The translations under genes and the position numbers were made by a program. The notes under the pieces are model-generated. The model ran no database searches, was not told the origin of the DNA, and saw only the letters and a program-made list of their open reading frames with translations. From Alphaproteobacteria bacterium (lineage in GTDB: Bacteria > Pseudomonadota > Alphaproteobacteria > JBKEAR01), in NCBI GenBank assembly GCA_047972425.1, contig JBKEAR010000022.1, positions 8,371 through 72,370 of the forward strand: 64,000 nucleotides of DNA. The letters run 5' to 3'. The first letter of the stretch is position 1. Every line of letters begins with the position of its first letter. Positions 7,124-49,119 of this stretch are shown one piece after another.

Positions 7124-7849
7124 TTATTTAAGTTGCTGCTCAACAGATTGTTTAATCGTATCGTAACCAACAGCACCCCGATAAATATCTGTTTTACCAA
7201 CAGCATAAAATGGTGTACCTTGAATATTTGCACCATCGGCAATATCTAAATTTTGGCTGATTACAGATGTAATAGCATCTTCTTGGGCAAGTTTACTAAT
7301 TTTATCCCAATCGCCCCCAAGAGATTTAATAAGATTTTCGATTGCCGTATCAGAAAGCTGGCTTTTAGCTGTCATAAGTTCGTTATGAAATTGTTCCCAT
7401 TGCTCCGGATATAATTGCCAAAAAGCGGTTGAATAAGCGGCAACTTGTCCTGAATAGTGACCAAGAATAGGAATGTTCACAATCTTAACTTGAAGCTCAG
7501 GGTGTTCTTTTGTTAATTTCAATAAATCAGGCCACATTAATTTACAATAGCCACATGCATAATCCATAAACTCAGTTAATATTAATTTAGGATCATCAAT
7601 ATTGCCAATAGCAGGGATATCCTTATTCGCATAAATATTATCTAAAGCCGTATTTAGATAAGCTTCTTGCGCGGCTATTTCTTTTTTTTGTAATGCAATT
7701 TGCATTTCAATTAGCATCTCAGGATTATCTAAAAGATATTCCCGAACAATATTTTGAACCTCGGTTTTATCCGCTGCATTCATCTCGGCATATACTGGTA
7801 TTGTCCCAAGCGAAAGCAAACATACAGAAATGGCTACGAGTTTTTTCAT
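7124..7849 (-). CDS. DsbA/Com1-like thiol-disulfide oxidoreductase
   Basis: Signal peptide, IVREYLLDNPE N-domain, EFMDYACGYCK (CxxC), cis-Pro loop IQGTP. Confidence 0.9.
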   Translation of the reverse strand: MKKLVAISVCLLSLGTIPVYAEMNAADKTEVQNIVREYLLDNPEMLIEMQIALQKKEIAAQEAYLNTALDNIYANKDIPAIGNIDDPKLILTEFMDYACGYCKLMWPDLLKLTKEHPELQVKIVNIPILGHYSGQVAAYSTAFWQLYPEQWEQFHNELMTAKSQLSDTAIENLIKSLGGDWDKISKLAQEDAITSVISQNLDIADGANIQGTPFYAVGKTDIYRGAVGYDTIKQSVEQQLK

Positions 7850-19354: not shown

Positions 19355-19416
19355 TTACTGCCTATTTTCCAATCAAATGCTTGCCTTTTTTTGTGTTTTG
19401 CACGATATTTAATCAC

Positions 19417-20427: not shown

Positions 20428-21551
20428 CAATAAAAACAAAAGCTTGGTTAGAATCTGCCCTTTCTTCAGAGGATACGTTAGATGCGTTATCCGATGCTAT
20501 TTTGATTGTTGGTCCTCATGGAACGATAAGATGGGCCAATGTTGCTTCCGAAGGTCTGTTTCGGCTAAGCCGTGCCCGATTGTTAAATACTAAGTTGGTT
20601 GATTTACTTAATGAGGATCACCCAATTATAGCATTGTTACAACGCCATATTACTGAGGAAACAACAACAATGGCGCGGGATATTCAGCTGCATCCTAAAC
20701 ATACGCAATCGAGCCATTTGCTTGATGTTCAAATAATGCCCTTGCGTGGTGATGATTTGCAAACAAGGTATATTCTGACTTTACGCGAAAAAAATATTAA
20801 TGTTATTCGTACTTGGGACGAAAATGTAAAAGGTGAAAATCAGATAGAGCTTATGGCCTCTGTTTTAAGCCATGAAATTCGTAATCCTTTAGCCGGTATT
20901 CGCGGTGCCGCACAGCTTTTAAGTAAAAATTTAAATGATGATGATAAGCCTTTGGCAGACATTATTATTGAGGAAGTGGATCGGATTAATCGTTTTATTG
21001 AGCAGTTACAAGAGGCTGATTTTAATAAAAATGAATTTGCCCCGATAAATATTCACAAATCATTAAATGTTGCCATTCGTAATTTACGTTCGCTCTTTGG
21101 GGATCAGTTTTATATTGCCGAGGATTTTGACCCATCATTACCCGAAGTTTACGGACATGAAGATAGTTTGATACGTATGTTCATTAACATTGCCCGCAAT
21201 GCAGTAGAAGCCTTACCAGAAAAAAATGGGCGTATTACTTTTAGGACCTATTGGAACCCCGGTGTTCGTTTTCGGCAAAACTCACAGTTAGCCAATAGTA
21301 CTTTACCACTTGTGGTCGAAATTGAAGATAATGGCATAGGTATTGCCAAAGAAATGCAAACGCGGATTTTTGATCCATTTGTCACAAGCAAAAAGAATGG
21401 AAGTGGCTTAGGTTTGGCACTTTCATCAAAAATTATGAGTGAACATCACGGTTTTATTGAATGTGATAGCAAACAAGGACGCACCCGATTTATTATGCGT
21501 TTTCCTATTTACCAACCCGGAAAAGAAGTAAGAGAAAATAATGCAACGTAA
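20424..21551 (+). CDS. ntrB: Nitrogen regulation histidine kinase NtrB
   Basis: PAS domain, HEIRNPLAGIRGAAQLL, FDPSLPE, EDNGIGI, FDPFVTSK..GSGLGL. Confidence 0.93.
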   Translation: MTIKTKAWLESALSSEDTLDALSDAILIVGPHGTIRWANVASEGLFRLSRARLLNTKLVDLLNEDHPIIALLQRHITEETTTMARDIQLHPKHTQSSHLLDVQIMPLRGDDLQTRYILTLREKNINVIRTWDENVKGENQIELMASVLSHEIRNPLAGIRGAAQLLSKNLNDDDKPLADIIIEEVDRINRFIEQLQEADFNKNEFAPINIHKSLNVAIRNLRSLFGDQFYIAEDFDPSLPEVYGHEDSLIRMFINIARNAVEALPEKNGRITFRTYWNPGVRFRQNSQLANSTLPLVVEIEDNGIGIAKEMQTRIFDPFVTSKKNGSGLGLALSSKIMSEHHGFIECDSKQGRTRFIMRFPIYQPGKEVRENNAT

Positions 21552-22998: not shown

Positions 22999-23002
22999 TA
23001 GC

Positions 23003-25213
23003 ATGAATATTTTAAAAAAGCTTGCTCTTAATCGACCAACACGTATTTTAGCACTTTGCTTAGGTGTTATGATTGCCTTAACAACCTATGCGACTTTAAG
23101 AGAATTTTCGAGCTTTGATCTCAATAATATTGCCTCGCGCCATTCCTATTTAATGCGCCTTTTATTCATCGATATTGGGCTAATATTTATTTTGGCCTGC
23201 ATCATATTTTATCGGCTCTGGCAAATATATTTAAATATGAAGAAAAAACAGCCGGGTTTTATTATTCGTTATAAATTAACCATGCTTTTTGGCGTTTTAG
23301 CTGCATTACCTGCTGTTGCTATTGCTATATTAGCCGGCATATATATTCATACCAGTTTACAGGGGTGGTTTAATGAGCGCATATCAACGGCCATTAACGA
23401 ATCTTCGGCTGTTGCACAAGCTTATTTAGAAGAACATCAACGCACAATTTTAGGTGATGCAGCCTCATTATCACAAACGATGGAGGCTCAATTAGAGCGA
23501 AGTTATCAGCGCCGGCGCTCAACTTTTATGAATGCAAGTGAAATCAAAAATGCGATTGCAAATGATATTAATTTGGCATTATCTAATCAATCGGCAGATA
23601 AAAAAATTACCGAGGCTGTTGTTGTTGATGATTCTGGCGATGTGATATTTCGTTCTTTTCAGACGTTAATTTTTGGACGTATTGATATACCCGAAGATAT
23701 TTTTTTAAAAGCCGACCAAGGTCAGTCGATTATTTTAGATAATCGGGCAAATGAGCGCCGTGTTCGGGCTTTAATAAAATTACCAAACTCTATTGATACA
23801 TTACTGGAGCGTAAAAGCTACTTACTCATTGGTCGCCCAATTGATGCCGAGGTGCTTAACCATGTTACCAATACGCAATCGGCAACAGCAGAATATAATT
23901 TACTTGAAAATCAAAGGGTTAGAACACAAAATATTTTAATTTTATTATATGCGATTATTGCATCTATCTTTTTATTGGCTTCATTATGGTTTGGTATGTT
24001 GATTGCAGGGCGAATTTCGCGCCCGATTATTGCTCTTATTCAGGCTTCTCGCGCCGTATCGGCAGGGGATTTAGATGCACAAGTGGTTGTTCGTGATACA
24101 AAAGATGAAATTAAACTTTTAGGCGATAGCTTTAATGATATGACCGCCCAATTAAAAAGCCAGCAACTGAGTTTATTAACCACCAATGCAGAGCTAGAAG
24201 AAAGGCGGCAGTTTATTGAGACGGTTTTAACAGGGGTTTCGGCGGGTGTTATTTCAACTGATGAAAATAATAATATTACCTTAGTAAATCCACAGGCTGA
24301 AGAACTTTTGGATATTAAAGAACAAGATGCAAGAGGGCAAAATCTTTATACTCTAATTCCTGAATTTTCACTTTTATCAAATATGCAAGGAACAACCGAA
24401 ATTACGGTGAGTCGCAAAAATCAAACGCGAATATTACAATGCCAAATTACGGTGGAAGATGTTAATAATGTAATTACCGGGTATATTATTACATTTGATG
24501 ACATCACCAGTTTACAAGCAGCGGAGAGAAAAGCTGCATGGTCTGGGGTTGCCCGCCGAATTGCCCATGAAATTAAAAATCCTTTAACGCCCATCCAGCT
24601 TTCGGCCGAGCGTTTACAACGACGTTATACCAAAATAATTGATCCGGATGATGAAGTTTTTGAACTTTGTCTTAAAACAATAATTCGCCAAGTGGATCAG
24701 ATTGGCCGTTTGGTTCAAGAATTCTCATCATTTGCCCGTTTACCTGAGCCTTTGTTGAAACAACAAAATATTAATATGATTATTAAAGGAATTTTTGAGC
24801 TTGAAAAACAACGGGATCATTTGGTGGATATGCAACTTAATTTGCCAAGTAATGATATTACTGGAAATATTGATGAAGGGCTTATAACACAAGCATTAAC
24901 AAATTTATTGAAAAATGCATCAGAAGCAGCTCTTTCAAATAACCCTAATGGACAAGCAAAAGTATATATTTATCTTGATGACATACAATCGGATAATTTT
25001 TTTGATATTATCATCGAAGATAACGGTGCGGGGTTTCCCGAAAACGACCGTAACCGTGTGCTTGAACCATATGTTACCACCAAAAAAGAAGGGACGGGAT
25101 TAGGGTTAGCAATTGTACAAAAAATTATTAATGACCATGGTGGTGAACTCTTATTAGATGATAGTAAAAAATTAAAAGGCGCAAAGGTTATATTGCGTTT
25201 TCCAAAAAACTGA
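23003..25213 (+). CDS. ntrY: Sensor histidine kinase NtrY
   Basis: TM helices, WFNERI, HAMP, PAS, AWSGVARRIAHEIKNPLTPIQLSAERL, GTGLGL; ATG 23003 preferred. Confidence 0.94.
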   Translation: MNILKKLALNRPTRILALCLGVMIALTTYATLREFSSFDLNNIASRHSYLMRLLFIDIGLIFILACIIFYRLWQIYLNMKKKQPGFIIRYKLTMLFGVLAALPAVAIAILAGIYIHTSLQGWFNERISTAINESSAVAQAYLEEHQRTILGDAASLSQTMEAQLERSYQRRRSTFMNASEIKNAIANDINLALSNQSADKKITEAVVVDDSGDVIFRSFQTLIFGRIDIPEDIFLKADQGQSIILDNRANERRVRALIKLPNSIDTLLERKSYLLIGRPIDAEVLNHVTNTQSATAEYNLLENQRVRTQNILILLYAIIASIFLLASLWFGMLIAGRISRPIIALIQASRAVSAGDLDAQVVVRDTKDEIKLLGDSFNDMTAQLKSQQLSLLTTNAELEERRQFIETVLTGVSAGVISTDENNNITLVNPQAEELLDIKEQDARGQNLYTLIPEFSLLSNMQGTTEITVSRKNQTRILQCQITVEDVNNVITGYIITFDDITSLQAAERKAAWSGVARRIAHEIKNPLTPIQLSAERLQRRYTKIIDPDDEVFELCLKTIIRQVDQIGRLVQEFSSFARLPEPLLKQQNINMIIKGIFELEKQRDHLVDMQLNLPSNDITGNIDEGLITQALTNLLKNASEAALSNNPNGQAKVYIYLDDIQSDNFFDIIIEDNGAGFPENDRNRVLEPYVTTKKEGTGLGLAIVQKIINDHGGELLLDDSKKLKGAKVILRFPKN

Positions 25214-25255
25214 ATAAAATAATAGAATAAAACACAATAAATCGAGAGAGGCTCA

Positions 25256-26656
25256 ATGGCTTTAGAAATTCTTATAGTTGATGACGAAGACGATATTCGT
25301 TTTTTAACTGCAGGTATATTAGAAGATGAAGGTTATGAAACAAGAGAGGCAGCCAATGACAAGGCGGCTCTTGATGCTATAAATTATCGCCAGCCTCATT
25401 TAGTTTTATTAGATATTTGGCTAGAAGGCAGCCGTTTAGATGGTTTGGGTATTTTAGATGCTATTAAAAAAGATAATCCTGATTTACCCATTTTGATGAT
25501 GTCTGGCCATGGGAATATTGAAACAGCGGTTGATGCGATTAAAAGGGGTGCTTACGACTTTATTGAAAAGCCGTTTAAATCAGACCGATTACTTCTTTTG
25601 GTGGATAGAGCATTGGAAAACGCAAGATTAAAGCGTGAAAACAAGGAATTAAAAAAGCAAAATGCATTTACCAGTGAACTTATTGGTGATTCGTTAAAAA
25701 TGCGCCAACTTAAAAGCCTTATTCAGAAAATTTCTCCCACGAATAGCCGCATATTGATTAAAGGGCCCGCAGGCTCGGGTAAAGAGATTGTAGCGCGCTC
25801 TATTCATGAAGCCTCGTTGAATACCGAAGGTTCATTTGTTATTGCAAGCTGTGCAAATATGGTACCCGAAACATTAGAAGAAGAATTATTTGGTATTGAA
25901 GGCGATGATAATCATCCGGCAAAAATTGGCTTGTTAGAGCAAGCTCATAAGGGAACTTTATTGCTTGATGAAGTAGGGGATATGCCCTTAGAAACACAGG
26001 CAAAAATCACACGATTATTGCAAGACCAAACTTTTTATCGCATTAATGGAACGCGCCCAGTTTCGGTAAATGTTCGGATTATGGCTTCAACAACCCAAGA
26101 CCTAGCAGAAAAAATAACACAAAATAAATTTCGGGAAGATTTATATTATCGATTAAATGTTGTACCAATTGAAATTGCACCTTTGAAAGATAGGCGTGAT
26201 GATGTAATTAAACTTGCCGATTATTTCTTAGCGATGATTACAAGTAACTTATCAAGTGCAATTACTGGTTTTTCAGATGATGCCAAAACAATATTACAAA
26301 GTTGGGATTGGCCGGGAAATGTACGAGAACTTAAAAATTTAATTGAGCGTGTTGTTATTATGGCAACAGATAATGACAATAATGAAATTACAGCCGAAGT
26401 GTTGCCCGAGGAGATTAAAAATAGTGATCGGATAAAGTCTGTTGGTGAAACCTATCAGGAACTCATAACAAAACCGTTAAGAGAAGCCAGAGAAGAGTTT
26501 GAAAGACGATATTTAGAAACTCAGCTTATTCGGTTTAATTATAATATTTCGAGGACAGCGAGTTTTATTGGCATGGAGCGCTCTGCATTGCATCGGAAAA
26601 TAAAAATGCTTGGCTTAACAAGTGAAGATAAAACCAACGATGATGATAATGAATAG
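25256..26656 (+). CDS. ntrX: Response regulator NtrX
   Basis: LDIWLEGSRLDGL, AAA+ domain without GAFTGA, GMERSALHRK. Confidence 0.95.
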   Translation: MALEILIVDDEDDIRFLTAGILEDEGYETREAANDKAALDAINYRQPHLVLLDIWLEGSRLDGLGILDAIKKDNPDLPILMMSGHGNIETAVDAIKRGAYDFIEKPFKSDRLLLLVDRALENARLKRENKELKKQNAFTSELIGDSLKMRQLKSLIQKISPTNSRILIKGPAGSGKEIVARSIHEASLNTEGSFVIASCANMVPETLEEELFGIEGDDNHPAKIGLLEQAHKGTLLLDEVGDMPLETQAKITRLLQDQTFYRINGTRPVSVNVRIMASTTQDLAEKITQNKFREDLYYRLNVVPIEIAPLKDRRDDVIKLADYFLAMITSNLSSAITGFSDDAKTILQSWDWPGNVRELKNLIERVVIMATDNDNNEITAEVLPEEIKNSDRIKSVGETYQELITKPLREAREEFERRYLETQLIRFNYNISRTASFIGMERSALHRKIKMLGLTSEDKTNDDDNE

Positions 26657-26669
26657 AGGATAAAAATAT

Positions 26670-28058
26670 ATGAAAGTTATTATTGGTGGTGCAGGGGAAG
26701 TTGGATCTTCAATTGCGCGTTATTTGGCAGAAGAAGATAATGAAGTAACAATCATTGATCAAGATCCGCAACTTGTAGCAAGCATATCGGGCTCAACAGA
26801 TATAAGAGCTGTAAGAGGGCATGCAGCGCTTCCTGAAACATTAGAGAATGTTGGTGTAAAAGATGCCGATATCGTCATTGCAGTTACACCATCGGATGAA
26901 GTAAATATGGTCATTTGTCAAATGGCGCACTCGTTATTTAATGTTCCGGTTAAAATTGCCCGTATTCGTGAGCAAGGATATTTGGATCAGCGATGGTCGG
27001 ATATTTTTCGATCTGACCATATGCCGATTAATCATGTAATTTCTCCTGAAACTGAGGTTGCCCATGCGTTTGTTGAGCGGCTTCGGGTTCCGGGCGCAGG
27101 TGATGTATTTTCTTTAGCAAGAGGGAAAGCACAATTAATCAATTTAAGACTAACAAATACATGTCCTGTTTTAAAAACACCGTTAAAGGAAATTAGTCAG
27201 CTTTTCCCTGATCTTAATGTAACAATCATGGCTATTTTACGTGAAAATCAGCTAATTGTCCCTAAAACGGGGCAAGAAGAGCTATTGGTTGGGGATCAAA
27301 TTTATTTTGCGGTTGAGACTATTCAGCTTAATCGGGCACTCTCAGCTTTTGGTTATGAAAATGAGGAAACTCCGCGTATTTTAATAGTTGGTGGGGGCAA
27401 AGTTGGGTTGCGATTAGCTCAAAATCTTGCAAATGATATTCAACATAAAGTTCAAGTGAATATTATTGAATATGATAAAAAACGGGCTGTTGAAATTGCA
27501 TCGGAAGTTAAAGGTACATCTATTCGCGTTTATAACGGAGATGCGCTCGATTCGGAAATCCTCAAAGAAGCTTCAGCAGAAAATAGCCAAGCCATTGTTT
27601 GTGTTACCAATGATGATGAAACCAATGCCTTAGCATGTTTATTGGGTAAAAAGTTGGGTATACGTAATAATTTAGCACTGATTAATCGGGCGGGTTACGA
27701 TACTTTACTAACAAATATTGGTATCGATAGTGTTGTGATGCCACGCTCAATTACAGTAAGTTCTATTTTGCGTCATGTTCGTCATGGCCGAATAATTTCG
27801 GCACATGCCATTGCTCATGACCAAGGTGAGGTTTTAGAGGCTTTGGCTTTAGAAACATCAAATATTGTCGGCACCCCATTAAGAGATTTGGACTTACCCA
27901 AAGAAATTATTATTGGTGCTGTTATTAGAAATGGAGCGTTTATTCGTCCCCGAGGGAGTACGGTAATTAATGCCGAAGATCACGTTATTTTATTTGCAAC
28001 AAAAAAATCAATTCGTAAAGCAGAGCGCTTGTTTAGTGTAAGCCTAGAATGGTTTTAA
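26670..28058 (+). CDS. trkA: Trk potassium uptake NAD-binding subunit
   Basis: Two RCK_N/RCK_C pairs, GAGEVG, GGGKVG; synteny after ntrX. Confidence 0.95.
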   Translation: MKVIIGGAGEVGSSIARYLAEEDNEVTIIDQDPQLVASISGSTDIRAVRGHAALPETLENVGVKDADIVIAVTPSDEVNMVICQMAHSLFNVPVKIARIREQGYLDQRWSDIFRSDHMPINHVISPETEVAHAFVERLRVPGAGDVFSLARGKAQLINLRLTNTCPVLKTPLKEISQLFPDLNVTIMAILRENQLIVPKTGQEELLVGDQIYFAVETIQLNRALSAFGYENEETPRILIVGGGKVGLRLAQNLANDIQHKVQVNIIEYDKKRAVEIASEVKGTSIRVYNGDALDSEILKEASAENSQAIVCVTNDDETNALACLLGKKLGIRNNLALINRAGYDTLLTNIGIDSVVMPRSITVSSILRHVRHGRIISAHAIAHDQGEVLEALALETSNIVGTPLRDLDLPKEIIIGAVIRNGAFIRPRGSTVINAEDHVILFATKKSIRKAERLFSVSLEWF

Positions 28059-28070
28059 AAGGAGTTTATT

Positions 28071-28925
28071 ATGCCAAAATCACTCATTTCTTACGTTAAT
28101 GGGCGTTATATTTATAATCAGTTTGCCATGGTTCATATTGAAGATAGGGGCTATCAATTTTCAGACGGTGTTTATGAGGTTGTTTCATATATTAATGGCC
28201 AGTGGGTCGATTTAGATTGGCATTTGGATCGTTTAGAATATTCATTGAGCGAACTAAAAATAGATATGCCAATGAGCCGTAAAGTATTAGAAATTGTTAT
28301 TAATAACTTAATGAAAAAAAATAGGATAAGAAACTCTGCTTATGTTTATTTGCAAATTACCCGGGGTGTTGCACCCAGAAACCATGTTTTCCCTATTGTT
28401 TCACAACCTTCTTTGGTTATGACGGTTAAAAGATTTTATCCGCCGGCTTTAAATGATGCATATAAAGGAATAAAAGTGATTACAGGTCCAGAAATTCGGT
28501 GGGCTAGGCCAGATATTAAATCAGTTTCTCTATTACCCAATATCTTGGCCAAACAGGCAGCAAAAGAGCAGGGGGCAGATGAATACTGGTTCATCAAACA
28601 AGATGGAATTACAGAGGGCGGATCTTCAAACTCTTGGATTGTAACAAAAAATAATGAGTTAATTACGCATCCGAGTAATGGTGAGATTTTAAAAGGCATC
28701 ACAAGAAACCGAATTATAGAAATTGCAAAAGAACTTGGTTTAAACTTTGTTGAAAGAACATTTTCTTTAGAAGAAGCCTATGATGCGAAAGAAGCTTTTG
28801 TTTCTTCTTCAACAGCACTGATAAGACCTGTTGTGCAAATTGACGATAAAAAAATTGGTCAAGGTGAAGCAGGGCCAATAACAAAAAATTTAATTGCTCA
28901 ATTTTATGCTGCATTTGGATTATAA
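28071..28925 (+). CDS. dat: D-amino-acid aminotransferase (PLP fold IV)
   Basis: DRGYQFSDGVYEV, DIKSVSLLPN, TEGGSSN, ILKGITR. Confidence 0.92.
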   Translation: MPKSLISYVNGRYIYNQFAMVHIEDRGYQFSDGVYEVVSYINGQWVDLDWHLDRLEYSLSELKIDMPMSRKVLEIVINNLMKKNRIRNSAYVYLQITRGVAPRNHVFPIVSQPSLVMTVKRFYPPALNDAYKGIKVITGPEIRWARPDIKSVSLLPNILAKQAAKEQGADEYWFIKQDGITEGGSSNSWIVTKNNELITHPSNGEILKGITRNRIIEIAKELGLNFVERTFSLEEAYDAKEAFVSSSTALIRPVVQIDDKKIGQGEAGPITKNLIAQFYAAFGL

Positions 28926-28935
28926 AAAAGAAAAT

Positions 28936-28964
28936 TTGCAAGCAACCAAAAGCTTTGGTATTCT
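28936..28964 (+). promoter_or_regulatory. Sigma70-type promoter of hfq-hflX
   Basis: TTGCAA-N17-TATTCT with TG extension. Confidence 0.55.
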
Positions 28965-29020
28965 TAAAGAGTAAATAGGGAAATTGTTCCTCAATAAAAA
29001 TAATAAAAAGGAGCTCATCA

Positions 29021-29269
29021 ATGGGTGCAGAACGTAGCCAAAATGTTCAAGATGTTTTTCTTAATCAGGTTCGTAAGTCAAAAACATCAGTAACAATTTT
29101 TTTAGTTAATGGAGTCAAGCTACAAGGGATTATTACTTGGTTTGATAATTTTTCAATATTATTGCGCCGGGATGGGCATTCGCAATTGGTTTATAAACAT
29201 GCGGTATCAACTATTATGCCCAATGGGCCTGTTCAGCTTTATGATGAAGAACAAGGTGAAGATGAGTAA
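29021..29269 (+). CDS. hfq: RNA chaperone Hfq
   Basis: [26 protein letters not shown]. Confidence 0.98.
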
Positions 29270-29303
29270 TCAATATGTATGATGATAAGGTTGTTATGCT
29301 TTA

Positions 29304-30641
29304 ATGGCTAATAATAATTGCTTAATCATTCATCCAAGACTAAAAAAAAATAATTATAACCGATCCATAGAAAATGCGCTTGATGAAGCGGTAGGCTTGG
29401 CCGAAGCTATTAATTTGAATGTAGTTGAGGCCATAGCTTTTACATTAAGCAAAGTAAAACCCGCCACATATATTGGCGAAGGCCAAATAGAATATATAAA
29501 AAATAAGGCTGCCGAGTTTGAAGAACCTGAGGTTTTGATATTTGATGGTAGTCTTACTCCCAGTCAACAACGAAACCTAGAACGTGCTTTAGACCTTAAA
29601 GTTATTGATAGAACAGGTTTAATTTTAGAGATATTTGGCGAGCGTGCACAAACAAGAGAAGGGCGTGCGCAGGTTCAATTGGCCTCATTAAGCTATCAAC
29701 GCTCTCGGCTTGTTCGCTCATGGACACACTTAGAGCGGCAAAAAGGTGGGGCAGGCTTTATGGGTGGCCCGGGCGAACGGCAAATAGAGCTTGATAGACG
29801 AATGATTGATGACCAAATTGGGCGGATTAAAAAAGATTTAGAGCAAATAAAACGTACAAGGGATTTGCAAAGGGGTAAGCGAAAGCGCGTTCCTTGGCCG
29901 GTTGTTGCATTGGTTGGTTATACAAATGCTGGAAAATCAACATTATTTAATGTTTTAACTCAAGCAGATGTTATGGCCAAAGATATGCTGTTTGCAACAT
30001 TAGACCCAACAATGCGCGCACTCAAGTTACCAAGTGGAAAACAAATAATTTTAGCCGATACGGTTGGATTTATTTCGGACTTACCACACCAGCTTGTAGA
30101 AGCCTTTAAAGCAACATTAGAGGAGGTCACGCAGGCCGATTTGCTTTTGCATGTTATTGATGTAAGCGATGCAGATAATGAAGAATATCAAAACAATGTT
30201 TTAGAAGTTCTTGAAAATATAGGCATAGATGAAGCTGATCAAGAGAAGCATATAATTGATGTTTTTAATAAAATAGATTTATTAGATGCCGAAGAACGAC
30301 AACAAATGGTCAATAAATTTTCTGTAAATAGAGTGCAAAATAAGGTTGCAATTTCAGCCTATGAACGGCTTTATTTAGATAAATTGCTTACATTAATCGA
30401 TGTAAAACTGAGTGAGGATGAAGAAGAATATTCAATCCGGATACCGGCAGCCCAAGGCGAAATTATTGCATGGTTGCATGAAAATTCAGTTGTTTTAAGT
30501 TTACAATATAATGATGATGGCTGGGCAGAAATTTTAGGAACTATAAAACCTGAGAGGGCAAATAGACTTGCCGATATGCTTAAAAAAATTAATTTTATTT
30601 TGTCACCATCCATACAAAAAATTATAAAGAAATATTATTAA
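29304..30641 (+). CDS. hflX: GTPase HflX
   Basis: GPGERQIELDRR, VGYTNAGKST, LFATLDPT, DTVGFI, NKID. Confidence 0.97.
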   Translation: MANNNCLIIHPRLKKNNYNRSIENALDEAVGLAEAINLNVVEAIAFTLSKVKPATYIGEGQIEYIKNKAAEFEEPEVLIFDGSLTPSQQRNLERALDLKVIDRTGLILEIFGERAQTREGRAQVQLASLSYQRSRLVRSWTHLERQKGGAGFMGGPGERQIELDRRMIDDQIGRIKKDLEQIKRTRDLQRGKRKRVPWPVVALVGYTNAGKSTLFNVLTQADVMAKDMLFATLDPTMRALKLPSGKQIILADTVGFISDLPHQLVEAFKATLEEVTQADLLLHVIDVSDADNEEYQNNVLEVLENIGIDEADQEKHIIDVFNKIDLLDAEERQQMVNKFSVNRVQNKVAISAYERLYLDKLLTLIDVKLSEDEEEYSIRIPAAQGEIIAWLHENSVVLSLQYNDDGWAEILGTIKPERANRLADMLKKINFILSPSIQKIIKKYY

Positions 30642-40947: not shown

Positions 40948-41877
40948 TTATGTTCGCATTTTTTTTGCTTGCATAAGGATTGTTTCGAGTGTTGATTTTA
41001 GAACTGTAGAAAGCAGTAACCAATCTTTTCTTCTCACACTCCCACTACGCCATACAGTTGTTAATTCTCTTAATGGCGGAACATCATTTAAAGCGGCAAA
41101 ATGTAACTGGCTATGAGCCGATGTTTCGAATGGCACGGCAATTTGTGGGAGCAATGTGGCCGATGGCTGCCACGCAACCATTTGTAATAAAGTGGCAACG
41201 CCGGTTGCTTGCAAACGTTGTTCGGGCTGGTGGAGTTGATTACAGGCCGATAATGCGTGGTCTTTCAAACAATGGCCACTCTCTAATAAAATCATTTCTT
41301 CGCCAGTTATATCATCAAGAGTTAAAGTATTTGTATTACCCCATTTATGATCTTTTCCGCATGCAACAACCATATTTTCAGCCCCGATAACTTCATTCTC
41401 AAAGCCTTTGATATCCCAAGGTAATGCAATGAGACCCAAATCAATATTGCCGGATTCAAGCTCCGATAATACTTTATCTGTTTGTAACTCAGTAAGATGA
41501 ATCTTCACATTCGGGAAAGCTTCATATATTTTTGGCATTGCCTGCGGCAATAACCAAGGTGCAATCGTTGGGATAACCCCTAAACGAACAATACCTGATA
41601 ACGGTGCAGACAGTATTTGTGCTAAATCCACTAATTCTTCGGATGATGCAAGGATTTTTCGAGATCTTTTGACTACCTCTTCACCCACAGGTGTAAATAT
41701 AACTTTGCGCCCTGCTCTATCAATTAATGCAACATCTAGCAAGGTTTCAAGCTCTTGAATTGATGTTGAAAGTGCCGATTGACTAATAAAGCAAGCTTGG
41801 GCTGCTTTTGTAAAATGTCTTTCTTCATATAAAGCAATTAAATAACTCATTTGTCTTAACGTTGGTAATGCACGCAT
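40948..41877 (-). CDS. oxyR: Hydrogen peroxide-inducible LysR regulator OxyR
   Basis: LysR HTH, GVIPTIAPWLLP, redox motif LLESGHCLKDHALSAC (both Cys present). Confidence 0.92.
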   Translation of the reverse strand: MRALPTLRQMSYLIALYEERHFTKAAQACFISQSALSTSIQELETLLDVALIDRAGRKVIFTPVGEEVVKRSRKILASSEELVDLAQILSAPLSGIVRLGVIPTIAPWLLPQAMPKIYEAFPNVKIHLTELQTDKVLSELESGNIDLGLIALPWDIKGFENEVIGAENMVVACGKDHKWGNTNTLTLDDITGEEMILLESGHCLKDHALSACNQLHQPEQRLQATGVATLLQMVAWQPSATLLPQIAVPFETSAHSQLHFAALNDVPPLRELTTVWRSGSVRRKDWLLLSTVLKSTLETILMQAKKMRT

Positions 41878-42174
41878 ATGGTATCTTCTTTTTTTATCAA
41901 AATTTTAATTTTTATCTATTTTTATTATATATATTCATGATAAAAAATTACAATCTTTTTTTAATAATTATAAATTGCGCTTAAAAAACCAATACTAAAA
42001 ATGTGCAATAAAATGTAGTAATAATAATAACCAATAAATTTAGTGCGAATTAGTTGGAACATCTTCTAATATACTGATTTTTAATTCATCTTGAAATATT
42101 CAAATATGATGATATTATGCAAAGATTAGTGAGATTTTTGTGAATTAATAGATATATTTTGGGGATAAAAAAAG

Positions 42175-42357
42175 TTGGATCTAAAGCCAGAACGTAAATT
42201 ATTTTCAAATTTAGGTGTTATTGTTTTTATAAAGGTTATCATATTGTTAATGATACTTTTTTTTATCATGCCACCATCAAAACGCGAAAATGTTCGTGAT
42301 GAATTTGGTCTGTCTTATCACAATTATATGATTAATGTAACAAAAGCTCATATATAA
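42175..42357 (+). CDS. Small membrane protein upstream of cydA (CydP-like)
   Basis: TTG start after GGGG, single TM with IKVIILL motif, position directly before cydA. Confidence 0.6.
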   Translation: MDLKPERKLFSNLGVIVFIKVIILLMILFFIMPPSKRENVRDEFGLSYHNYMINVTKAHI

Positions 42358-42383
42358 CATAATAAAAAAAGGGATTTCTTATT

Positions 42384-44171
42384 ATGCTCGAATCAATTAC
42401 AGAGGTTGTTGCGTTATCGCGTATTCAGTTTGCTGCAACAGCCCTTTATCATTTTCTTTTTGTTCCAGTTACGCTTGGTCTTTCTACTTTGGTTGCGATT
42501 ATGGAAACTATCTATGTTCGCACTGGAAATAAAGCTTGGCGTGATGCAGCAAAATTTTGGGGGTTATTATTTGGGATTAACTTTGCTATGGGTGTTGCAA
42601 CAGGTATCCCAATGGAATTCCAATTTGGTACGAACTGGTCGGTATATTCTGACCAAGTTGGTGATATTTTTGGTGCCCCACTCGCAATTGAAGGCCTTAT
42701 GGCTTTCTTTTTAGAAGCTACATTTATTGGTATGTGGTTTTTTGGTTGGAATCGCTTAAGCAAAAAGGCTCACTGTGTTGTCGGTTGGCTTATGGCTTTA
42801 GGTGCAACTTTCTCGGCTATTTGGATTTTAATTGCAAATGGTTTTATGCAAAATCCAGTGGGTGGAGAATTAAACTTTTTGACTTCACGTGTTGAGATGA
42901 CAAACTTTTTACAGCTTGTTCTTAACCCTATTGCGCAAGCTAAGTTTGGCCATACAATTACAGGTGGTTATGTTTGTGGTTCCATATTTGTTTTAACGAT
43001 TTCTGCAATTTATCTTCTTAAAGGAAGAAACATCGGTTTTGCAAAACGCTCAATGACTGTAGCCTCAACTTTTGGCCTTTTGGCTCTTATCGTGAATATT
43101 TGGATGGGGCATAATGCGGGTGATTTAATTAACGAATATCAACCTGCTAAAATGGCTGCAACCGAGGCCGTGTGTGAACCAGAAGAAGGTTTAGCTGGAT
43201 TTAATGTTGCTGGTGTTATCGTAGAAAATATAAAAACTGGTGGTTCTTGTGAATTTAAAGGTCTACATATTCCTAAAGTTTTAGGTATGATTACAACATC
43301 AACATCTGCTAATGATGGTAGTGTATTCTCGGTAGAAGAAATTCATGAGGTTAATAAAGAACGTATCAAATCTGGTATTATCGCAGTATCAACAAAACAA
43401 GTTTTAAGTGATAAATATAAAGCCGCTGTCAAAATATATATGGATGATAGTAGCCATGACCGTACTGAGCTTGACCGTTTAGAAGAACAATGGATGATCT
43501 TTAGTGAAAATGCAAAAGAAGCCGGACGTTTGAACTTTGCAAATTATGCCCATGCATTACTTAAAGGTGATGCTGAAGCACAAGCAATAATTGATAATCA
43601 GATTGCAACATTAACCCAAGGTTTAACTGACCCTGATGTTATTACATATGCAGAAAATAAATATCATTATGGTTATGGTATGCTTTTACAAAAATATGTT
43701 GTTGATGTTACTCAAGCTGATGAAAGCATGATTGAGAAAGCTGTAAATGACACTGTACCATCGATTGCACCAAACTTTTGGGCATTTCGTATAATGGTTG
43801 GTTCAGGTTTCTTACTATTATTCTATCTGATTGTTGCAGTTGTTCTTGCACGTAAAGATGGATTCGAAAAATGCAGGAAATTCCTTGTTTGGGCAATTAT
43901 AATGTTCCCATTCCCATGGATTTGTATCGAAGCCGGATGGTTCTTAGCAGAATATGGGCGCCAACCTTGGGCTATTCAAGATTTATTGCCAGTGGTAAAA
44001 GCTGTATCTGCGCATCCACCATCAGATCTATGGATTTCTCTCGGAATGTTTGTATCTGTGTATTCAATACTCTTAGTCGTAGAGCTTTATTTAATGATTA
44101 AATATATTAAATTAGGTCCAGAAGGAACAAAACTCGAAAAAGTTTCTCCTGATGGCTATGAGAAAGCATAG
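42384..44171 (+). CDS. cydA: Cytochrome bd ubiquinol oxidase subunit I with extra-long Q-loop
   Basis: LSRIQFA, YHFLFVP, EFQFGTNW, KFGHT, QPAKMAATE, FRIMV, EYGRQPW; 595 aa. Confidence 0.97.
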   Translation: MLESITEVVALSRIQFAATALYHFLFVPVTLGLSTLVAIMETIYVRTGNKAWRDAAKFWGLLFGINFAMGVATGIPMEFQFGTNWSVYSDQVGDIFGAPLAIEGLMAFFLEATFIGMWFFGWNRLSKKAHCVVGWLMALGATFSAIWILIANGFMQNPVGGELNFLTSRVEMTNFLQLVLNPIAQAKFGHTITGGYVCGSIFVLTISAIYLLKGRNIGFAKRSMTVASTFGLLALIVNIWMGHNAGDLINEYQPAKMAATEAVCEPEEGLAGFNVAGVIVENIKTGGSCEFKGLHIPKVLGMITTSTSANDGSVFSVEEIHEVNKERIKSGIIAVSTKQVLSDKYKAAVKIYMDDSSHDRTELDRLEEQWMIFSENAKEAGRLNFANYAHALLKGDAEAQAIIDNQIATLTQGLTDPDVITYAENKYHYGYGMLLQKYVVDVTQADESMIEKAVNDTVPSIAPNFWAFRIMVGSGFLLLFYLIVAVVLARKDGFEKCRKFLVWAIIMFPFPWICIEAGWFLAEYGRQPWAIQDLLPVVKAVSAHPPSDLWISLGMFVSVYSILLVVELYLMIKYIKLGPEGTKLEKVSPDGYEKA

Positions 44172-44182
44172 AGGAGGAAAAC

Positions 44183-45370
44183 ATGGAATTTGAACTTTAT
44201 ACAATATTACGTCTTATTTGGTGGCTTTTGCTCGGTGTGTTACTCATTGGTTTTGCTATCATGGATGGATTTGACCTTGGTGTAGCATCAATGTTGCATT
44301 ATGTTGGCAGAAAAGATAGTGAACGCCGTGTTGTTATTAACACCATTGGCCCCGTTTGGGAAGGCAACCAAGTTTGGTTCCTTTTAGGTGGTGGTGCTAT
44401 TTTTGCTGCATTTGCACCGTTATATGCTTTAAGCTTTACGGGTTTTTATACAGCAATGATGCTCATTATTTTTGCGCTAATTTTACGGCCTGTTGGCTTT
44501 AAATTTCGCTCTAAAATCAATAACCCTAAATGGCGTGCAACTTGGGATTTTGGATTGTTCCTTGGTGGTTTAATCCCTGCCCTTGTTGCCGGTGTTGCTG
44601 TGGGTAATGTTATTTTAGGTGTGCCATTTGGTATATCGCCAGAGGATAGCTCGCGCCTTTTATATGATTATAAATTGGGTAATCTATTCTATTTGCTTTT
44701 TAACCCCAATGGATTCTTTATATTCACATTGCTTACAGGCTTAACATCGGTAACTATGTGTTTAATGCAAGGTGGTAACTATTTGGCTTTAAAAACCGAA
44801 GGTGTCATCAGTCAACGTGCAGCAACAGCGGGTCGTTTTGGTAACATTGTTGCTTTAGCATTGTTTGTTTTATGTGGTCTTTTAATTGCTACAGTCATTA
44901 AAGGCTATACAGTTGACCCTGAAAATATGAGACGCCTAAGCCAGTTACCTTCTATGCAATGGGGCTTTGTTGATACTGAGCGTAAAGCCGGCGCATGGAT
45001 GGCTAATTATAGCCGTTATCCATTATTCCTATTACCACCTATTTTGGCTATTTTAGGAATGGCTAGTAGCTATTTGTTTAATAAAAGAGAAGCCTTTGGT
45101 AAAGCCTTTGTTGCATCTTCGGTTGCAATATTCGGTATTATTTCTACCGTTGGAACAGCAATCTTTCCGTTTTTATTACCATCAAGCACTAACCCGAAAG
45201 ATAGCTTAACAATTTGGAATGCCTCAAACTCAGAAGGTACTTTGTTTGTAATGACAATATGTGCTTTGATCTTTGTACCCATCGTTTTAGCATATACAAG
45301 TTGGGTATATTACGAGTTACGTGGTAAAGTGACCGAAAAAGAAATATTATCTGATGGTCAAAGTTATTAA
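44183..45370 (+). CDS. cydB: Cytochrome bd oxidase subunit II
   Basis: MDGFDLG, GPVWEGNQVW, LRPVGFKFRSK, SLTIWNAS, YTSWVY. Confidence 0.97.
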   Translation: MEFELYTILRLIWWLLLGVLLIGFAIMDGFDLGVASMLHYVGRKDSERRVVINTIGPVWEGNQVWFLLGGGAIFAAFAPLYALSFTGFYTAMMLIIFALILRPVGFKFRSKINNPKWRATWDFGLFLGGLIPALVAGVAVGNVILGVPFGISPEDSSRLLYDYKLGNLFYLLFNPNGFFIFTLLTGLTSVTMCLMQGGNYLALKTEGVISQRAATAGRFGNIVALALFVLCGLLIATVIKGYTVDPENMRRLSQLPSMQWGFVDTERKAGAWMANYSRYPLFLLPPILAILGMASSYLFNKREAFGKAFVASSVAIFGIISTVGTAIFPFLLPSSTNPKDSLTIWNASNSEGTLFVMTICALIFVPIVLAYTSWVYYELRGKVTEKEILSDGQSY

Positions 45371-45381
45371 GGAGAAAATTA

Positions 45382-45546
45382 ATGGTTGAATTCTTACATT
45401 TATTTCATAGTTTTATAAGCAATCCTATCGTTACATTTCTTCTTGCAGGTTTTGGAACATGGATGGTTTTCATCATTGTTGCATCAACTATTTCGGTTAA
45501 TTCTGGAAAATGGATTGATCGTGAGTTAGAGAATGATCAACAATAA
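45382..45546 (+). CDS. 54-aa small membrane protein, CydX-like
   Basis: Below the ORF-track cutoff. AAGGAG RBS, MVEFLHLFHSFISNPIVTFLLAGFGTWMVFIIVASTISVNSGKWIDRELENDQQ; fills the cydB-ybgE gap; TAATG coupling to the next gene. Confidence 0.72.
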   Translation: MVEFLHLFHSFISNPIVTFLLAGFGTWMVFIIVASTISVNSGKWIDRELENDQQ

Positions 45547-45857
45547 TGAGTAAAATGCATATTTCAAATATCATAAGCATTTTATTGGTGCTTACAATCA
45601 TTGTTCTTTTTGTATTCGCAAGCCCATTTACCTTGGGTGAATATAAAGAAATTGCCGATGGCTATGCTATAAAAAGCAAACCCGTTGGTGCGTTAGAACG
45701 ATCTTTATTAATGCTTGCAGTAATGATGGTACCGGGAGCATTATGTTATGGCTTAGGATTACAAGTAAAATCCAAATGGGCAAAAATATTAATTAGCCCA
45801 TGGTTTACTTGGCCAATAATGTGCATAGGTATTGTTGGTGCACTTTATTTAAAATAA
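45546..45857 (+). CDS. cyd operon membrane protein, YbgE-like
   Basis: Three TM helices, GALCYGLG...KILISP pattern, last gene of the cyd operon. Confidence 0.7.
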   Translation: MSKMHISNIISILLVLTIIVLFVFASPFTLGEYKEIADGYAIKSKPVGALERSLLMLAVMMVPGALCYGLGLQVKSKWAKILISPWFTWPIMCIGIVGALYLK

Positions 45858-45887
45858 AAAAAAGAGGCTCAATTGAGCCTCTTTTTT
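45858..45887. terminator. Bidirectional terminator between the cyd operon and azoR
   Basis: AAAAAAGAGGCTCA-at-TGAGCCTCTTTTTT. Confidence 0.9.
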
Positions 45888-45894
45888 CGTTATA

Positions 45895-46512
45895 TTATTT
45901 TAAGATGTTTTTGATTTGCTCAGAGGCTTCATGAATGCCCTTATTGCGTGCCTCATCTCCCATATTTAGCCCTTGTGCCATAATATGTTTTTGATTGGTT
46001 AAGCCAAGCCAACCCATAATAGCAGCTACATATTGGCTATTCATGTTATATGCTGCAGCATCGCCATCATATGTACCGCCAAAGGCCGATACAATATATA
46101 ATGTTGTTTTATTGGGGTTTAATAAGCCTGTAGAAGAACCATCGGTATTATATTTAAAAGTCTCGTTTACCCGTACAATCTGATCAATCCATGTTTTTAG
46201 CTGTGCAGGAATCCCTAAGTTGTACATAGGTGATGATATAATAAGATGATCGGCATCTTTTACTTCATTAATAAGCTTATCGGATAATGCAACAATCTTT
46301 TGCTGTTCGGTCGTTCTATCTGCTGTTGCCGTATACCAAGCCGTTGCAACTTCCGGTGTAAAAAACGGATATGGCTTATTAACTACATCATAATAAACTT
46401 CTTGTGCATCGGGATATTTAGCTTTTAGACCATTGCGTAGCTCTAACGATAATTGGCGAGAAACCGATGGCATTGGGTTTGCTGAGCTATCAATGGATAA
46501 AATTTTTGTCAT
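45895..46512 (-). CDS. azoR: FMN-dependent NADH azoreductase/quinone reductase
   Basis: IDSS..SVSRQL, PMYNLGIPAQLKTWIDQIVR..TFKY, GGTY. Confidence 0.92.
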   Translation of the reverse strand: MTKILSIDSSANPMPSVSRQLSLELRNGLKAKYPDAQEVYYDVVNKPYPFFTPEVATAWYTATADRTTEQQKIVALSDKLINEVKDADHLIISSPMYNLGIPAQLKTWIDQIVRVNETFKYNTDGSSTGLLNPNKTTLYIVSAFGGTYDGDAAAYNMNSQYVAAIMGWLGLTNQKHIMAQGLNMGDEARNKGIHEASEQIKNILK

Positions 46513-46540
46513 TCTTAATCCTTATTTTAAATTTAACATC

Positions 46541-46557
46541 ACTTTTAAAAAGAAAGT
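46541..46557. promoter_or_regulatory. Palindromic operator ACTTT-N7-AAAGT upstream of azoR
   Basis: ACTTTtaaaaagAAAGT about 28 bp before the azoR start; same motif upstream of ygiD. Confidence 0.6.
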
Positions 46558-46657
46558 TTTGTTTTTATAAGAAAATTATAAAGTTAAGTCAATATGCTGA
46601 AACTCAAATAAATTTCATATCTTTCATCGGTATTTTAAATAATTGAGTGTTGCTATC

Positions 46658-47485
46658 TTATCTTTGATGAAAGATAAAAGATCGCATAGATATAGAACCT
46701 AAGTCCATACCTTCATTAAAAAAAGTTAACTTATCTGTAGGTTCGGCCAATCCTAAGCAATATAATGCAGGCATAAAATGGTCTGCTGTTGGGTGTGCCT
46801 TACGGAAAAGTGCTGAATAACGATCTATTTCGGCCAGTTTAGAGAAATTACGGTTTTCGATTGCTTGGGCTGTCATTTCATCAAACTCAATTGCCCAATC
46901 ATAGTTGCGGCCATCTGAGCGCATATCGTGTAGGTTATGGACTAAATTGCCACTACCAAGCACCAATACCCCTTTCTCTCTTAATTTTTTGAGCTTATGC
47001 CCAATTTCTAATTGTTCAGAAAAACTGCGCCTATAGTCGATTGACATTTGAAATACCGGTATATCCGCATTAGGATAAAGTAATTTAAGAACAGACCAAG
47101 CACCATGATCAAGCCCCCAATCATCAGTAGCATGTACATGTTCCGTCGCAAGCATATTAATAACTTCTTGGGCAATATCGGGTGCACCGGGTGCAGGATA
47201 TTGAACCTGAAATAATGCAGATGGGAAACCACCAAAATCATGAATTGTCGGTGGTGTTTTTTGTACATTTATAAATGTTTCTTTTTGGGTTATCCAATGG
47301 GCTGAAATACACAAGATAGCTTGTGGACGCGGCAATATTTGCCCTGCAAGTGCCCATCCTTGTGACCATTCACTATCATTAATAGCATTCATAGGGCTAC
47401 CATGGCCAATGAACATGATAGGCATTTTTTCCGATGGTTTTAAATGTTCCGAAAGTATTTGTAAATTCATTTGGGTTATTGGCAT
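46658..47485 (-). CDS. ygiD: 4,5-DOPA extradiol dioxygenase (YgiD/DODA, LigB family)
   Basis: FIGHGSPMNA, ISAHW, IHDFGGFP, WGLDHGAWSVL, GSGNLVHNL, HPTADHF. Confidence 0.92.
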   Translation of the reverse strand: MPITQMNLQILSEHLKPSEKMPIMFIGHGSPMNAINDSEWSQGWALAGQILPRPQAILCISAHWITQKETFINVQKTPPTIHDFGGFPSALFQVQYPAPGAPDIAQEVINMLATEHVHATDDWGLDHGAWSVLKLLYPNADIPVFQMSIDYRRSFSEQLEIGHKLKKLREKGVLVLGSGNLVHNLHDMRSDGRNYDWAIEFDEMTAQAIENRNFSKLAEIDRYSALFRKAHPTADHFMPALYCLGLAEPTDKLTFFNEGMDLGSISMRSFIFHQR

Positions 47486-47510
47486 AACTTTCCCCTTTAT
47501 TACATATGTA

Positions 47511-47527
47511 ACTTTAAAAACAAAAGT
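47511..47527. promoter_or_regulatory. Palindromic operator ACTTT-N7-AAAGT upstream of ygiD
   Basis: ACTTTaaaaacaAAAGT about 25 bp before the ygiD start. Confidence 0.6.
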
Positions 47528-47581
47528 AACCTATATATAATTTTATATTTACATAATTGCAAGCCATAAAATTAAGCGAAT

Positions 47582-47619
47582 AAAAAAAGAGCTTCATAAG
47601 GTTATAAAGCTCCTTTTTT
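47582..47619 (-). terminator. Probable terminator of gatCAB
   Basis: Imperfect stem GAGCTT.ATAA/TTAT.AAGCTC flanked by A- and T-runs. Confidence 0.55.
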
Positions 47620-47640
47620 CTTAGTTATAAAGTTTGTTAA

Positions 47641-49119
47641 CTAACCTAAAATTTTCTTCCGCAAAATTTCGTTTACGGCGGCGGGGTTAGCCTTGCCTTG
47701 GGTTGCCCGCATCACTTGGCCGACAAACCAGCCCAGCATTTTATCTTTACCCGCACGTATTTCCTCTACTTTATCCATATTGGCAGCCATAATTTCATCA
47801 ATAGCGGCTTCAATAGCACTGGTATCGGTAATCTGTTTAAGCCCTTTTTCTTCAACAATTTGTGCGGCTGATTTGTTGGGTTCAGCCACCATAAAGTCAA
47901 AGACATCTTTGGCAATTCGGTTGTTGATATCACCTTTTTCAATCAGGTCAATTAATTCACCGAGTTGCTCTGCCGTAATTGGGCTTTCTGTAATCTCAAT
48001 ACCCTCTTTATTCAACAAACCAAAAAGGCTGCCCGTAACCCAATTTACTGCAAGTTTCGGGTCACGTTGTGCTTTACCATTCTCATCAACTTTAGCAACT
48101 TCTTCAAAATAATCGGCACTTTGTTTCGATGCTGCTAATACGCCGGCTTCATAAGCCGAAAGCGCAAAATCATTAATAAAACGTTCCTTTTTCTCATCGG
48201 GTAGCTCTGGTAAAGAGTTTTTAATATTTTCTACATATTCCTCTGTAATCACAACCGGCAATAAATCAGGATCGGGGAAATAACGGTAATCATGGGCAAA
48301 CTCTTTAGAGCGCATCGAGCGTGTTTCACCTTTGGTTGGGTCTAATAGTCGTGTTTCTTGTACAACTTCGCCCCCATTTTCCCAAACTTCAACTTGGCGT
48401 TGGGCTTCAAGCTCAATTGCCATTTGGACAAAACGAATAGAGTTTACGTTCTTAATCTCGCATCGGGTTCTAAATTCTTCGCCTGCTTTACGTACCGAAA
48501 CATTCACATCGCAACGCATAGAGCCTTCATTCATATTGCCATCGCAAGTACCCAAATAACGGACAATAGAGCGTAATTTGGTTAAATAAGCCCCCGCTTC
48601 TTCGGGTGAGCGAATATCGGGGTCAGATACAATCTCCATTAAAGCAACCCCCGTACGGTTTAAATCGATAAATGAACGGCGTGGGTCTTGGTCATGTAAA
48701 GATTTACCGGCATCTTGCTCTAAGTGAATACGCTCAACCCCTACTGTTTTGGTCGAACCATCTTTAAGGTCTAAAATTACTTGTCCCTTCCCGACAATCG
48801 GGTGGTAAAGTTGCGAGATTTGATAACCTTGAGGTAAATCGGCATAAAAATAATTTTTACGGTCAAAGCGCGAATATAAATTAATCTCGGCTTTAATTCC
48901 TAAACCGGTACGCACCGCTTGCTCTACACAAAACTCATTAAGTACAGGCAACATGCCGGGCATTCCGGCATCCACAAAAGCAACTTGGTCATTTGGCTCG
49001 GCCCCAAAAGTTGTAGAGGCCCCCGAAAATAATTTGGCGTTTGAAATCACTTGGCAATGAACCTCTAGGCCAACAACAACTTCCCAATCGCCTGTTTCAC
49101 CTTGGATAATATAACTCAT
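47641..49119 (-). CDS. gatB: Asp/Glu-tRNA amidotransferase subunit B
   Basis: [41 protein letters not shown]. Confidence 0.98.

Follow-up and report, generated by a model that had tools for sequence, protein, structure and literature searches.

Subunit I (CydA) of the cytochrome bd quinol oxidases has a periplasmic loop, the Q-loop, that includes a lid at the quinol site. In Escherichia coli, this periplasmic lid (Glu259-Gly306) is flexible and closes over the quinol, which is held and oxidized by Asp239, Tyr243 and Arg298. Here, we describe a CydA encoded in a stretch of 64,000 nucleotides from an alphaproteobacterium (contig JBKEAR010000022.1, positions 8,371 to 72,370; the whole of this stretch is called the window below). 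The lid of this protein contains a pair of cysteines, Cys264 and Cys289, and its quinol site appears to be rebuilt. Both features recur in a small clade of long-Q-loop enzymes, in which the two cysteines are fairly likely to form an intramolecular disulfide that helps to order the lid.

The three E. coli residues are described as catalytic, and as conserved only in long-Q-loop oxidases, in a 2026 study of E. coli bd-I by cryo-electron microscopy (cryo-EM) and mutagenesis (PMC13189123). According to the same study, Arg298 of the lid hydrogen-bonds the quinone head, and Asp239 and Tyr243 line the quinone pocket. Asp239 was also reported as the hydrogen-bond partner of aurachin D in 2021 (PMC8585947). 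A lid disulfide is known from Mycobacterium tuberculosis, where the bond between Cys266 and Cys285 was seen by cryo-EM (PMC8413341), and its reduction is reported to cut the activity by up to 90% in a reversible way (PMC11786768). The Q-loop disulfide has so far been treated as an actinobacterial signature. In the account of Safarian et al. (2021, PMC8413341), a tryptophan in transmembrane helix 1, Trp9, accompanied the Cys pair in all 30 of the 561 Pfam-seed sequences concerned, all of them from Actinobacteria.

CydA of the window and its lid cysteines

The gene and the features of the protein that are discussed here are the following:

42384..44171, forward strand: cydA, cytochrome bd oxidase subunit I with an extra-long Q-loop (open reading frame (ORF) of 595 aa)
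43110..43124, forward strand: His243 to Asp247, at the quinol/aurachin site, in place of Asp239 and Tyr243 of E. coli
43173..43175, forward strand: codon of Cys264 (tgt), the first lid cysteine, three residues past Glu261, aligned with M. tuberculosis Cys266 and E. coli Trp260
43248..43250, forward strand: codon of Cys289 (tgt), the second lid cysteine, opening the second predicted lid strand, in a clade-specific insert of 3-4 residues
43299..43301, forward strand: Ser306, replacing E. coli Arg298
43416..43652, forward strand: clade-specific Q-loop insert, residues 345-393 and 405-423, 68 aa, predicted to be helical from alignment and model

The match of this CydA to the Pfam family PF01654 (Cyt_bd_oxida_I) covers the whole profile (positions 1-418 of 418), with an E-value of 5e-152 and a score of 506.7 bits (cut-off 26.2). 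The NCBIfam equivalogs for subunit I of bd-I and bd-II are missed by a wide margin, NF011677 with 567 bits for a cut-off of 968 and NF011609 with 509 for a cut-off of 1025. Among PDB sequences, the two enzymes of E. coli rank highest, bd-I (6rko_A) with an E-value of 6e-150 and bd-II (7ose_A) with 5e-141; they belong to the qOR1 long-Q-loop enzymes (6rko, 7ose and the 9se4 series). The actinobacterial chains match far more weakly, with an E-value of 2e-85 for M. tuberculosis (7nkz_A), besides those of M. smegmatis and Corynebacterium glutamicum. Like the E. coli enzymes, the window CydA has the heme ligands and key acidic residues, as His23, Glu103, Glu111, His190, Met471 and Glu523 are equivalent to E. 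coli His19, Glu99, Glu107, His186, Met393 and Glu445, while Lys256 and Glu261 correspond to Lys252 and Glu257 of the E. coli Q-loop. All eight residues are unchanged throughout two alignments, one of 12 and one of 64 sequences, which indicates that the enzyme is under selection as an oxidase. The protein also aligns through the C-terminal Q-loop extension of E. coli, of approximately 60 residues, and has 68 residues more. Judged by these alignments, the window CydA serves as subunit I in a functional cytochrome bd quinol oxidase and belongs to a small and divergent branch within the long-Q-loop group of E. coli type. By homology its Q-loop is assigned to the periplasm, where this loop lies in all solved homologues.

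The protein contains six cysteines among its 595 residues, two of which lie in the lid. The original prediction had read this pair from the sequence, had placed the first cysteine at the offset of M. tuberculosis Cys266 and had stated that E. coli CydA is free of cysteines here. All three statements hold: both codons were located and the translation matches, and when the protein is aligned to solved chains by HMMER, Cys264 matches Cys266 of M. tuberculosis CydA (7nkz) as well as with the cysteines of M. smegmatis and C. glutamicum (7d5i, 8b4o), always three residues beyond the conserved Glu of the K-M-A-x-x-E motif. E. coli bd-I has Trp260 in this column and no cysteine in its lid. For the second cysteine, a 72-residue query against the PDB stopped short of it, but a full-length profile of the clade aligns across the entire lid of the M. 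tuberculosis and M. smegmatis enzymes. In this alignment HMMER puts the second cysteine of the clade two columns from the cysteine of both mycobacteria. It precedes the conserved Pro of the shared I/V-P-x-V-L motif by 8 residues (9 in the cluster P0005), compared to 10 for Cys285 of M. tuberculosis, and the spacing between the two cysteines is 25 residues in the window CydA and 31 in the cluster P0006, compared to 19 in M. tuberculosis. As aligned, Cys264 is thus at the homologous position, and Cys289 brackets the same lid hairpin but occupies a different column from Cys285.

Conservation and rarity of the pair

The closest proteins were sought among 5.8 billion. The nearest relatives of the window CydA are five clusters at 90% identity (P0002-P0006), with proteins of 580-590 aa that are 52-68% identical to it. 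Beyond these clusters there is a sharp fall to ordinary CydA of approximately 510-530 aa and approximately 46% identity. The clade, as used here, consists of 14 sequences, i.e., six representatives of 90%-identity clusters, including the window CydA, and eight further cluster members. Both lid cysteines are retained in all 14. The Q-loops of the six representatives share only 34-56% identity with that of the query, and the stretch between the cysteines is variable, even among variants that are 94-95% identical overall. Within an 11-sequence alignment of the clade, the only invariant columns between Glu261 and Pro297 are Cys264, Ile279, Gly287 and Cys289. Since cysteines are few in this protein, and since the pair is kept throughout the clade despite the divergent Q-loop and the variable residues in between, it is more than a chance occurrence.

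The pair was further placed in an alignment of 247 distinct CydA sequences, composed of the 14 clade sequences and 233 others (114 listed proteins and 119 distinct sequences derived from loci). A cysteine anywhere between the conserved Glu and Pro is found in 1 of the 233 other sequences, and there it is a single one. In the column of Cys264, the other long-Q-loop CydA (n = 217) have Trp in 208 cases, Phe in 8 and Leu in 1, and the column of Cys289 is a gap in all 233 others. The co-conservation that the original prediction had put forward as a check is therefore borne out, as both cysteines occur in 14 of the 14 closest homologues and the pair is absent from ordinary proteobacterial CydA. Text searches for papers on the cytochrome bd Q-loop gave no report of a Cys pair in proteobacterial Q-loops, a point on which the alignments that accompany the 2026 study and the work of Safarian et al. 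may also bear.

The clade is rare. A search of the Q-loop against a library of 1.84 billion representatives gave one strong match, P0002 at 7e-55, with the next one at 1e-8, and a Q-loop profile search of longer proteins returned the same six clusters and nothing new. When a word-index search was limited to residues 258-455, it revealed no further clade member, the query alone being matched. No member occurs among 400 genomes of the same class, and a scan of genome contigs, which was dominated by the conserved MEFQFGTN pattern, gave ordinary CydA only. Among the matches listed, the metagenome scan likewise contained only ordinary long-Q-loop genes, and 79 metagenomic long-Q-loop CydA had no cysteine within 62 residues of the motif start. 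A partial match at 67% identity (G312) was considered as a clade member and rejected, being an ordinary, truncated CydA.

A quick tree of 83 CydA under the LG+G4 model, with its root set by eight short-Q-loop sequences from the same class, groups the six clade members that it contains, with a Shimodaira–Hasegawa-like approximate likelihood ratio test (SH-aLRT) support of 99. They appear as sister to the other 69 long-Q-loop sequences (SH-aLRT 92). Given a long-branch warning, this sister position and the depth of the split are tentative.

A rebuilt quinol site and a candidate disulfide

The cysteines are not the only change in this region, and the larger finding, as seen in the alignments, is a rare and apparently rebuilt quinol site in a long-Q-loop bd oxidase. 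All three residues that are proposed as a catalytic signature in E. coli are lost from the clade. In the column of Asp239, the clade has His in 14 of 14 sequences, and the other long-Q-loop enzymes have Asp in 217 of 217. At Tyr243, Asp is present throughout the clade (14/14) as compared to Tyr in 208 of the 217 others. The lid residue Arg298, conserved in 214 of 217, is replaced by Ser in 12 clade sequences and by Gly and Ala in one each. Unlike the clade, E. coli bd also has a Trp where Cys264 is found, and it is devoid of both the lid insert bearing Cys289 and the 68-residue addition to the Q-loop. This addition has no relative outside the clade in the protein libraries, and its profile matches in the ESM Atlas and the PDB are below meaningful levels. 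A clade without all three proposed signature residues provides a natural test of the long-Q-loop model: either its enzymes oxidize quinol in another way, or a disulfide-ordered lid would make Asp239, Tyr243 and Arg298 dispensable. As Asp239 is the hydrogen-bond partner of aurachin D, inhibitor binding may be affected too.

An AlphaFold2 model was built from the 64-sequence alignment, with a mean predicted local distance difference test score (pLDDT) of 90.2 and a predicted template modeling score (pTM) of 0.90. The lid, at a pLDDT of 87-89, is modeled as a helix (254-261), a coil (262-272), two strands forming a hairpin (273-281 and 289-296) and a helix (300-303), with Cys289 at the beginning of the second strand. 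Confidence is lower for residues 301-310, the part that has lost the Arg, with a pLDDT of 66. The insert is modeled as helices at 361-380, 385-394 and 397-411 with a pLDDT of 84-98. The best Foldseek match is E. coli bd-II (7ose_A), which has a fully ordered Q-loop, with a template modeling (TM) score of 0.94 by target; M. tuberculosis comes fifth with 0.87.

The clade resembles the actinobacterial enzymes (M. tuberculosis CydA Cys266-Cys285; PDB 7nkz oxidized, 9fka reduced) in several ways. In both, the first cysteine stands at Glu+3, where it replaces the Trp of other CydA, the second opens the returning strand of the lid, and the two flank the N-terminal hairpin of the lid, within a periplasmic loop that adjoins heme b558. 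By alignment, the bonded pair of M. tuberculosis would have the same order of elements, i.e., Cys, coil, strand, turn, and a Cys that opens the next strand. There are also differences. The actinobacterial enzymes have a short Q-loop as opposed to the extra-long one of the clade, they match the window CydA less well by both E-value and TM score, and their Trp9, part of the menaquinone-9 site, corresponds to Ile14 in the window CydA (Ile in 10, Thr in 3 and a gap in 1 of the clade sequences). The original prediction had called the pair mycobacterial-type, a label that does not suit a long-Q-loop enzyme whose best matches are 6rko and 7ose. Because of this E. coli-like scaffold, the Ile at the Trp9 position, and the different column and spacing of the second cysteine, the pair is best read from the sequences as convergent with the actinobacterial one and not as an inherited mycobacterial type. 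A Cys pair acquired independently on an E. coli-type scaffold would show that stapling of the lid is a recurrent solution and not a quirk of one lineage.

We consider it fairly likely that Cys264 and Cys289 are joined in this way. The nearly invariant Trp after the quinol-site helix would have become Cys264, and Cys289 would have come with a short insertion at the hairpin tip of the lid. The bond would be formed in the oxidizing periplasm by the DsbA/DsbB system of the cell; indeed, the periplasmic location of the loop, together with DsbB (71 bits) and a secreted CxxC DsbA-like protein that are both encoded in the genome, makes a disulfide plausible. By linking the hairpin of the lid to the end of helix Qh1, it would order the lid beforehand, independently of closure induced by the substrate, and the lid could stay in a closed-like state without a contact between Arg298 and the quinone. 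Secondarily, and with less certainty, reduction of the bond might loosen the lid and lower the activity, as reported for M. tuberculosis.

Several points weigh against a stapled lid. In the predicted secondary structure, Cys289 is at the tip of the hairpin while Cys264 is located nine residues before its base, and according to the model the two would be adjacent only if the coil 262-272 runs back along the hairpin to the tip. The second cysteine departs from the M. tuberculosis arrangement in column (8-9 residues before the Pro versus 10) and in spacing (25-31 versus 19). Although the Cys pair is present in the enzymes of M. smegmatis and C. glutamicum, their lids are reported as disordered in the structures (PMC11786768), so a conserved pair is no guarantee of an ordered, stapled lid. 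The profile of the clade rests on only six clusters at 90% identity. Lastly, the invariant His243 and Asp247 near the same site would fit a Cys2-His-Asp metal site equally well.

This last point leads to the main alternative, namely that no disulfide is formed and that the rebuilt quinol site instead binds a metal ion or some other cofactor, with both cysteines and the clade-specific His243 and Asp247 as ligands. Four invariant potential ligands do arise together in one lineage, Cys264 comes after the helix that covers heme b558, and His243 and Asp247, each present in 14 of 14 sequences, replace two residues described as lining the quinone pocket (PMC13189123). On the other hand, neither a known metal-site motif in the sequence nor any family or structure match points to such a site, and in the periplasm DsbA and DsbB would oxidize an exposed Cys pair. 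We regard a metal site as improbable. Even less probable is that the cysteines stay reduced, either as free thiols in a site reactive to quinones or electrophiles, or as the origin of an intermolecular link to another subunit or protomer. The 5.76-kb segment that holds the operon also contains an azoreductase-like and a DOPA-dioxygenase-like gene, and azoreductases of this kind presumably act as NADH:quinone reductases, so that both neighbors would deal with quinones and catechols. These neighbors are encoded on the other strand, past a terminator. A partner for an intermolecular link might be seen in the 103-residue YbgE-like ORF of the operon, which has two cysteines, but these are located in hydrophobic stretches, and the 54-residue ORF at the cydX position has none. 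Moreover, the presence of exactly two cysteines in a periplasmic loop, always kept together, fits a pair.

If the disulfide does form, it may simply be structural, compensating for the enlarged and remodeled Q-loop without a regulatory or redox-sensing role. Disulfides made by DsbA in the periplasm are usually stable structural bonds, the pair co-occurs with the 68-residue insert and with the loss of the lid-closing Arg, no specific redox partner is tied to the operon, and the adjacency to oxyR is not conserved. The equivalent bond of M. tuberculosis, in the one enzyme tested, argues in the other direction, since it is reported to be reversibly reduced with a large effect on activity (PMC11786768). 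Taken as an account of its own, a purely structural bond is quite possible, if tentative, and within the disulfide reading a redox switch is no more likely than a staple with a plain structural role. A more far-reaching proposal is that the clade is a separate bd subtype, with a site rebuilt by His/Asp for Asp/Tyr, the absence of the lid Arg, a Cys-Cys staple and three extra helices. Its mechanism would be unlike that of E. coli, its donor or inhibitor profile possibly different, and it would be gated by the redox state of the periplasm. Although this is rather unlikely as a whole, it would mean, if true, that a redox-sensing terminal oxidase arose a second time, independently of that of Actinobacteria.

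Operon, neighboring genes and host genome

The other features of the window that are relevant here are listed below:

7124..7849, reverse strand: secreted DsbA/ScsC-like thiol-disulfide oxidoreductase with CGYC and a signal-like N-terminus (Pfam DSBA and ScsC_N)
40948..41877, reverse strand: OxyR-like LysR regulator, divergent from cydA over an AT-rich spacer of approximately 500 bp (Pfam HTH_1 and LysR_substrate)
41892..47650, unstranded: 5.76-kb segment with cydA, cydB, two small ORFs, an azoR-like gene (azoreductase) and a ygiD-like gene (4,5-DOPA-dioxygenase), absent between oxyR and gatB in a genome of the same genus
44183..45370, forward strand: cydB, subunit II, 395 aa (PF02322, E 1e-94; TIGR00203, 384.8 bits, over the cut-off)
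45382..45546, forward strand: 54-codon ORF with one helix at the cydX position, 12 nt past cydB, without Pfam or NCBIfam match
45546..45857, forward strand: 103-codon membrane ORF, weakly YbgE-like, the last gene of the operon (PF09600 Cyd_oper_YbgE, E 0.0028, 18.4 bits, below the cut-off of 25.2)
45858..45887, unstranded: bidirectional terminator-like hairpin that closes the cyd operon, with a stem of 13-14 bp and T tracts on both strands

The gene order, cydA-cydB-small ORF-YbgE-like, is again that of E. coli bd, and the start of the 103-codon ORF overlaps the stop of the 54-codon ORF. The latter was considered as a CydX and not accepted as such, as it matches no family. In E. coli, the N-terminal Trp of CydX is reported to contact Asp239 of CydA (PMC13189123). 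The 54-codon ORF is without an N-terminal Trp, and Asp239 is likewise replaced in the CydA of the clade. Just upstream of cydA (42175-42357), where some bacteria have cydP, there is a 60-codon ORF with a TTG start and one hydrophobic helix. It was also rejected as a CydP in view of the lack of a Pfam or NCBIfam match, and it may be a chance frame in AT-rich DNA.

In the original prediction, OxyR and a DsbA-like oxidase encoded in the same window were brought into connection with a redox-switchable quinol site. Neither link could be upheld. The best NCBIfam match of the LysR regulator is OxyR (NF008361), with 233 bits, below the cut-off of 329. The gene is adjacent to cydA only because the cyd segment sits between oxyR and gatB, and this segment is missing in the sister species. 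DNA matches to the same-genus genome end at 41891 and restart at 47651, with approximately 515 bp between oxyR and gatB in that genome, and no CydA is found in this only other genome of the genus (95% complete). With a G+C content of 0.37-0.38, the cyd genes hardly differ from the window as a whole (0.38), so that composition does not distinguish a gain of the segment from a loss. The genes of the segment presumably all deal with quinones or catechols, assuming a quinone-reducing role for the azoreductase. The DsbA-like gene is 35 kb away from cydA and, in a genome-wide search, is the sole DSBA-family gene over the cut-off. It thus looks like a housekeeping gene, and its product is most likely a general periplasmic oxidase.

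The genome to which the window belongs is 93.7% complete. It contains a UbiA (TIGR01474, 334.8 bits, over the cut-off) and no match to MenA (TIGR00751), the genes of the futalosine pathway not having been searched for. The host therefore probably uses ubiquinol and not menaquinol, in contrast to the menaquinol-specific enzymes of the M. tuberculosis type, whose hosts produce menaquinone. The UbiA match (C36:12767-13615) carries one TAA inside the matched span. The exporter CydDC is usually needed for the assembly of bd oxidases. No CydD over the TIGR02857 cut-off was found in this genome, the best match having 270 bits versus 435, and CydC was not searched for. Besides the bd oxidase, one heme-copper oxidase is encoded. 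The assignment of the host to its class is supported by a gene order elsewhere in the window (19324-30641), where a dusB-like gene is followed by ntrB, ntrC, ntrY, ntrX, trkA, an aminotransferase gene, hfq and hflX, as the order ntrBC-ntrYX-trkA-hfq-hflX is typical of Alphaproteobacteria.

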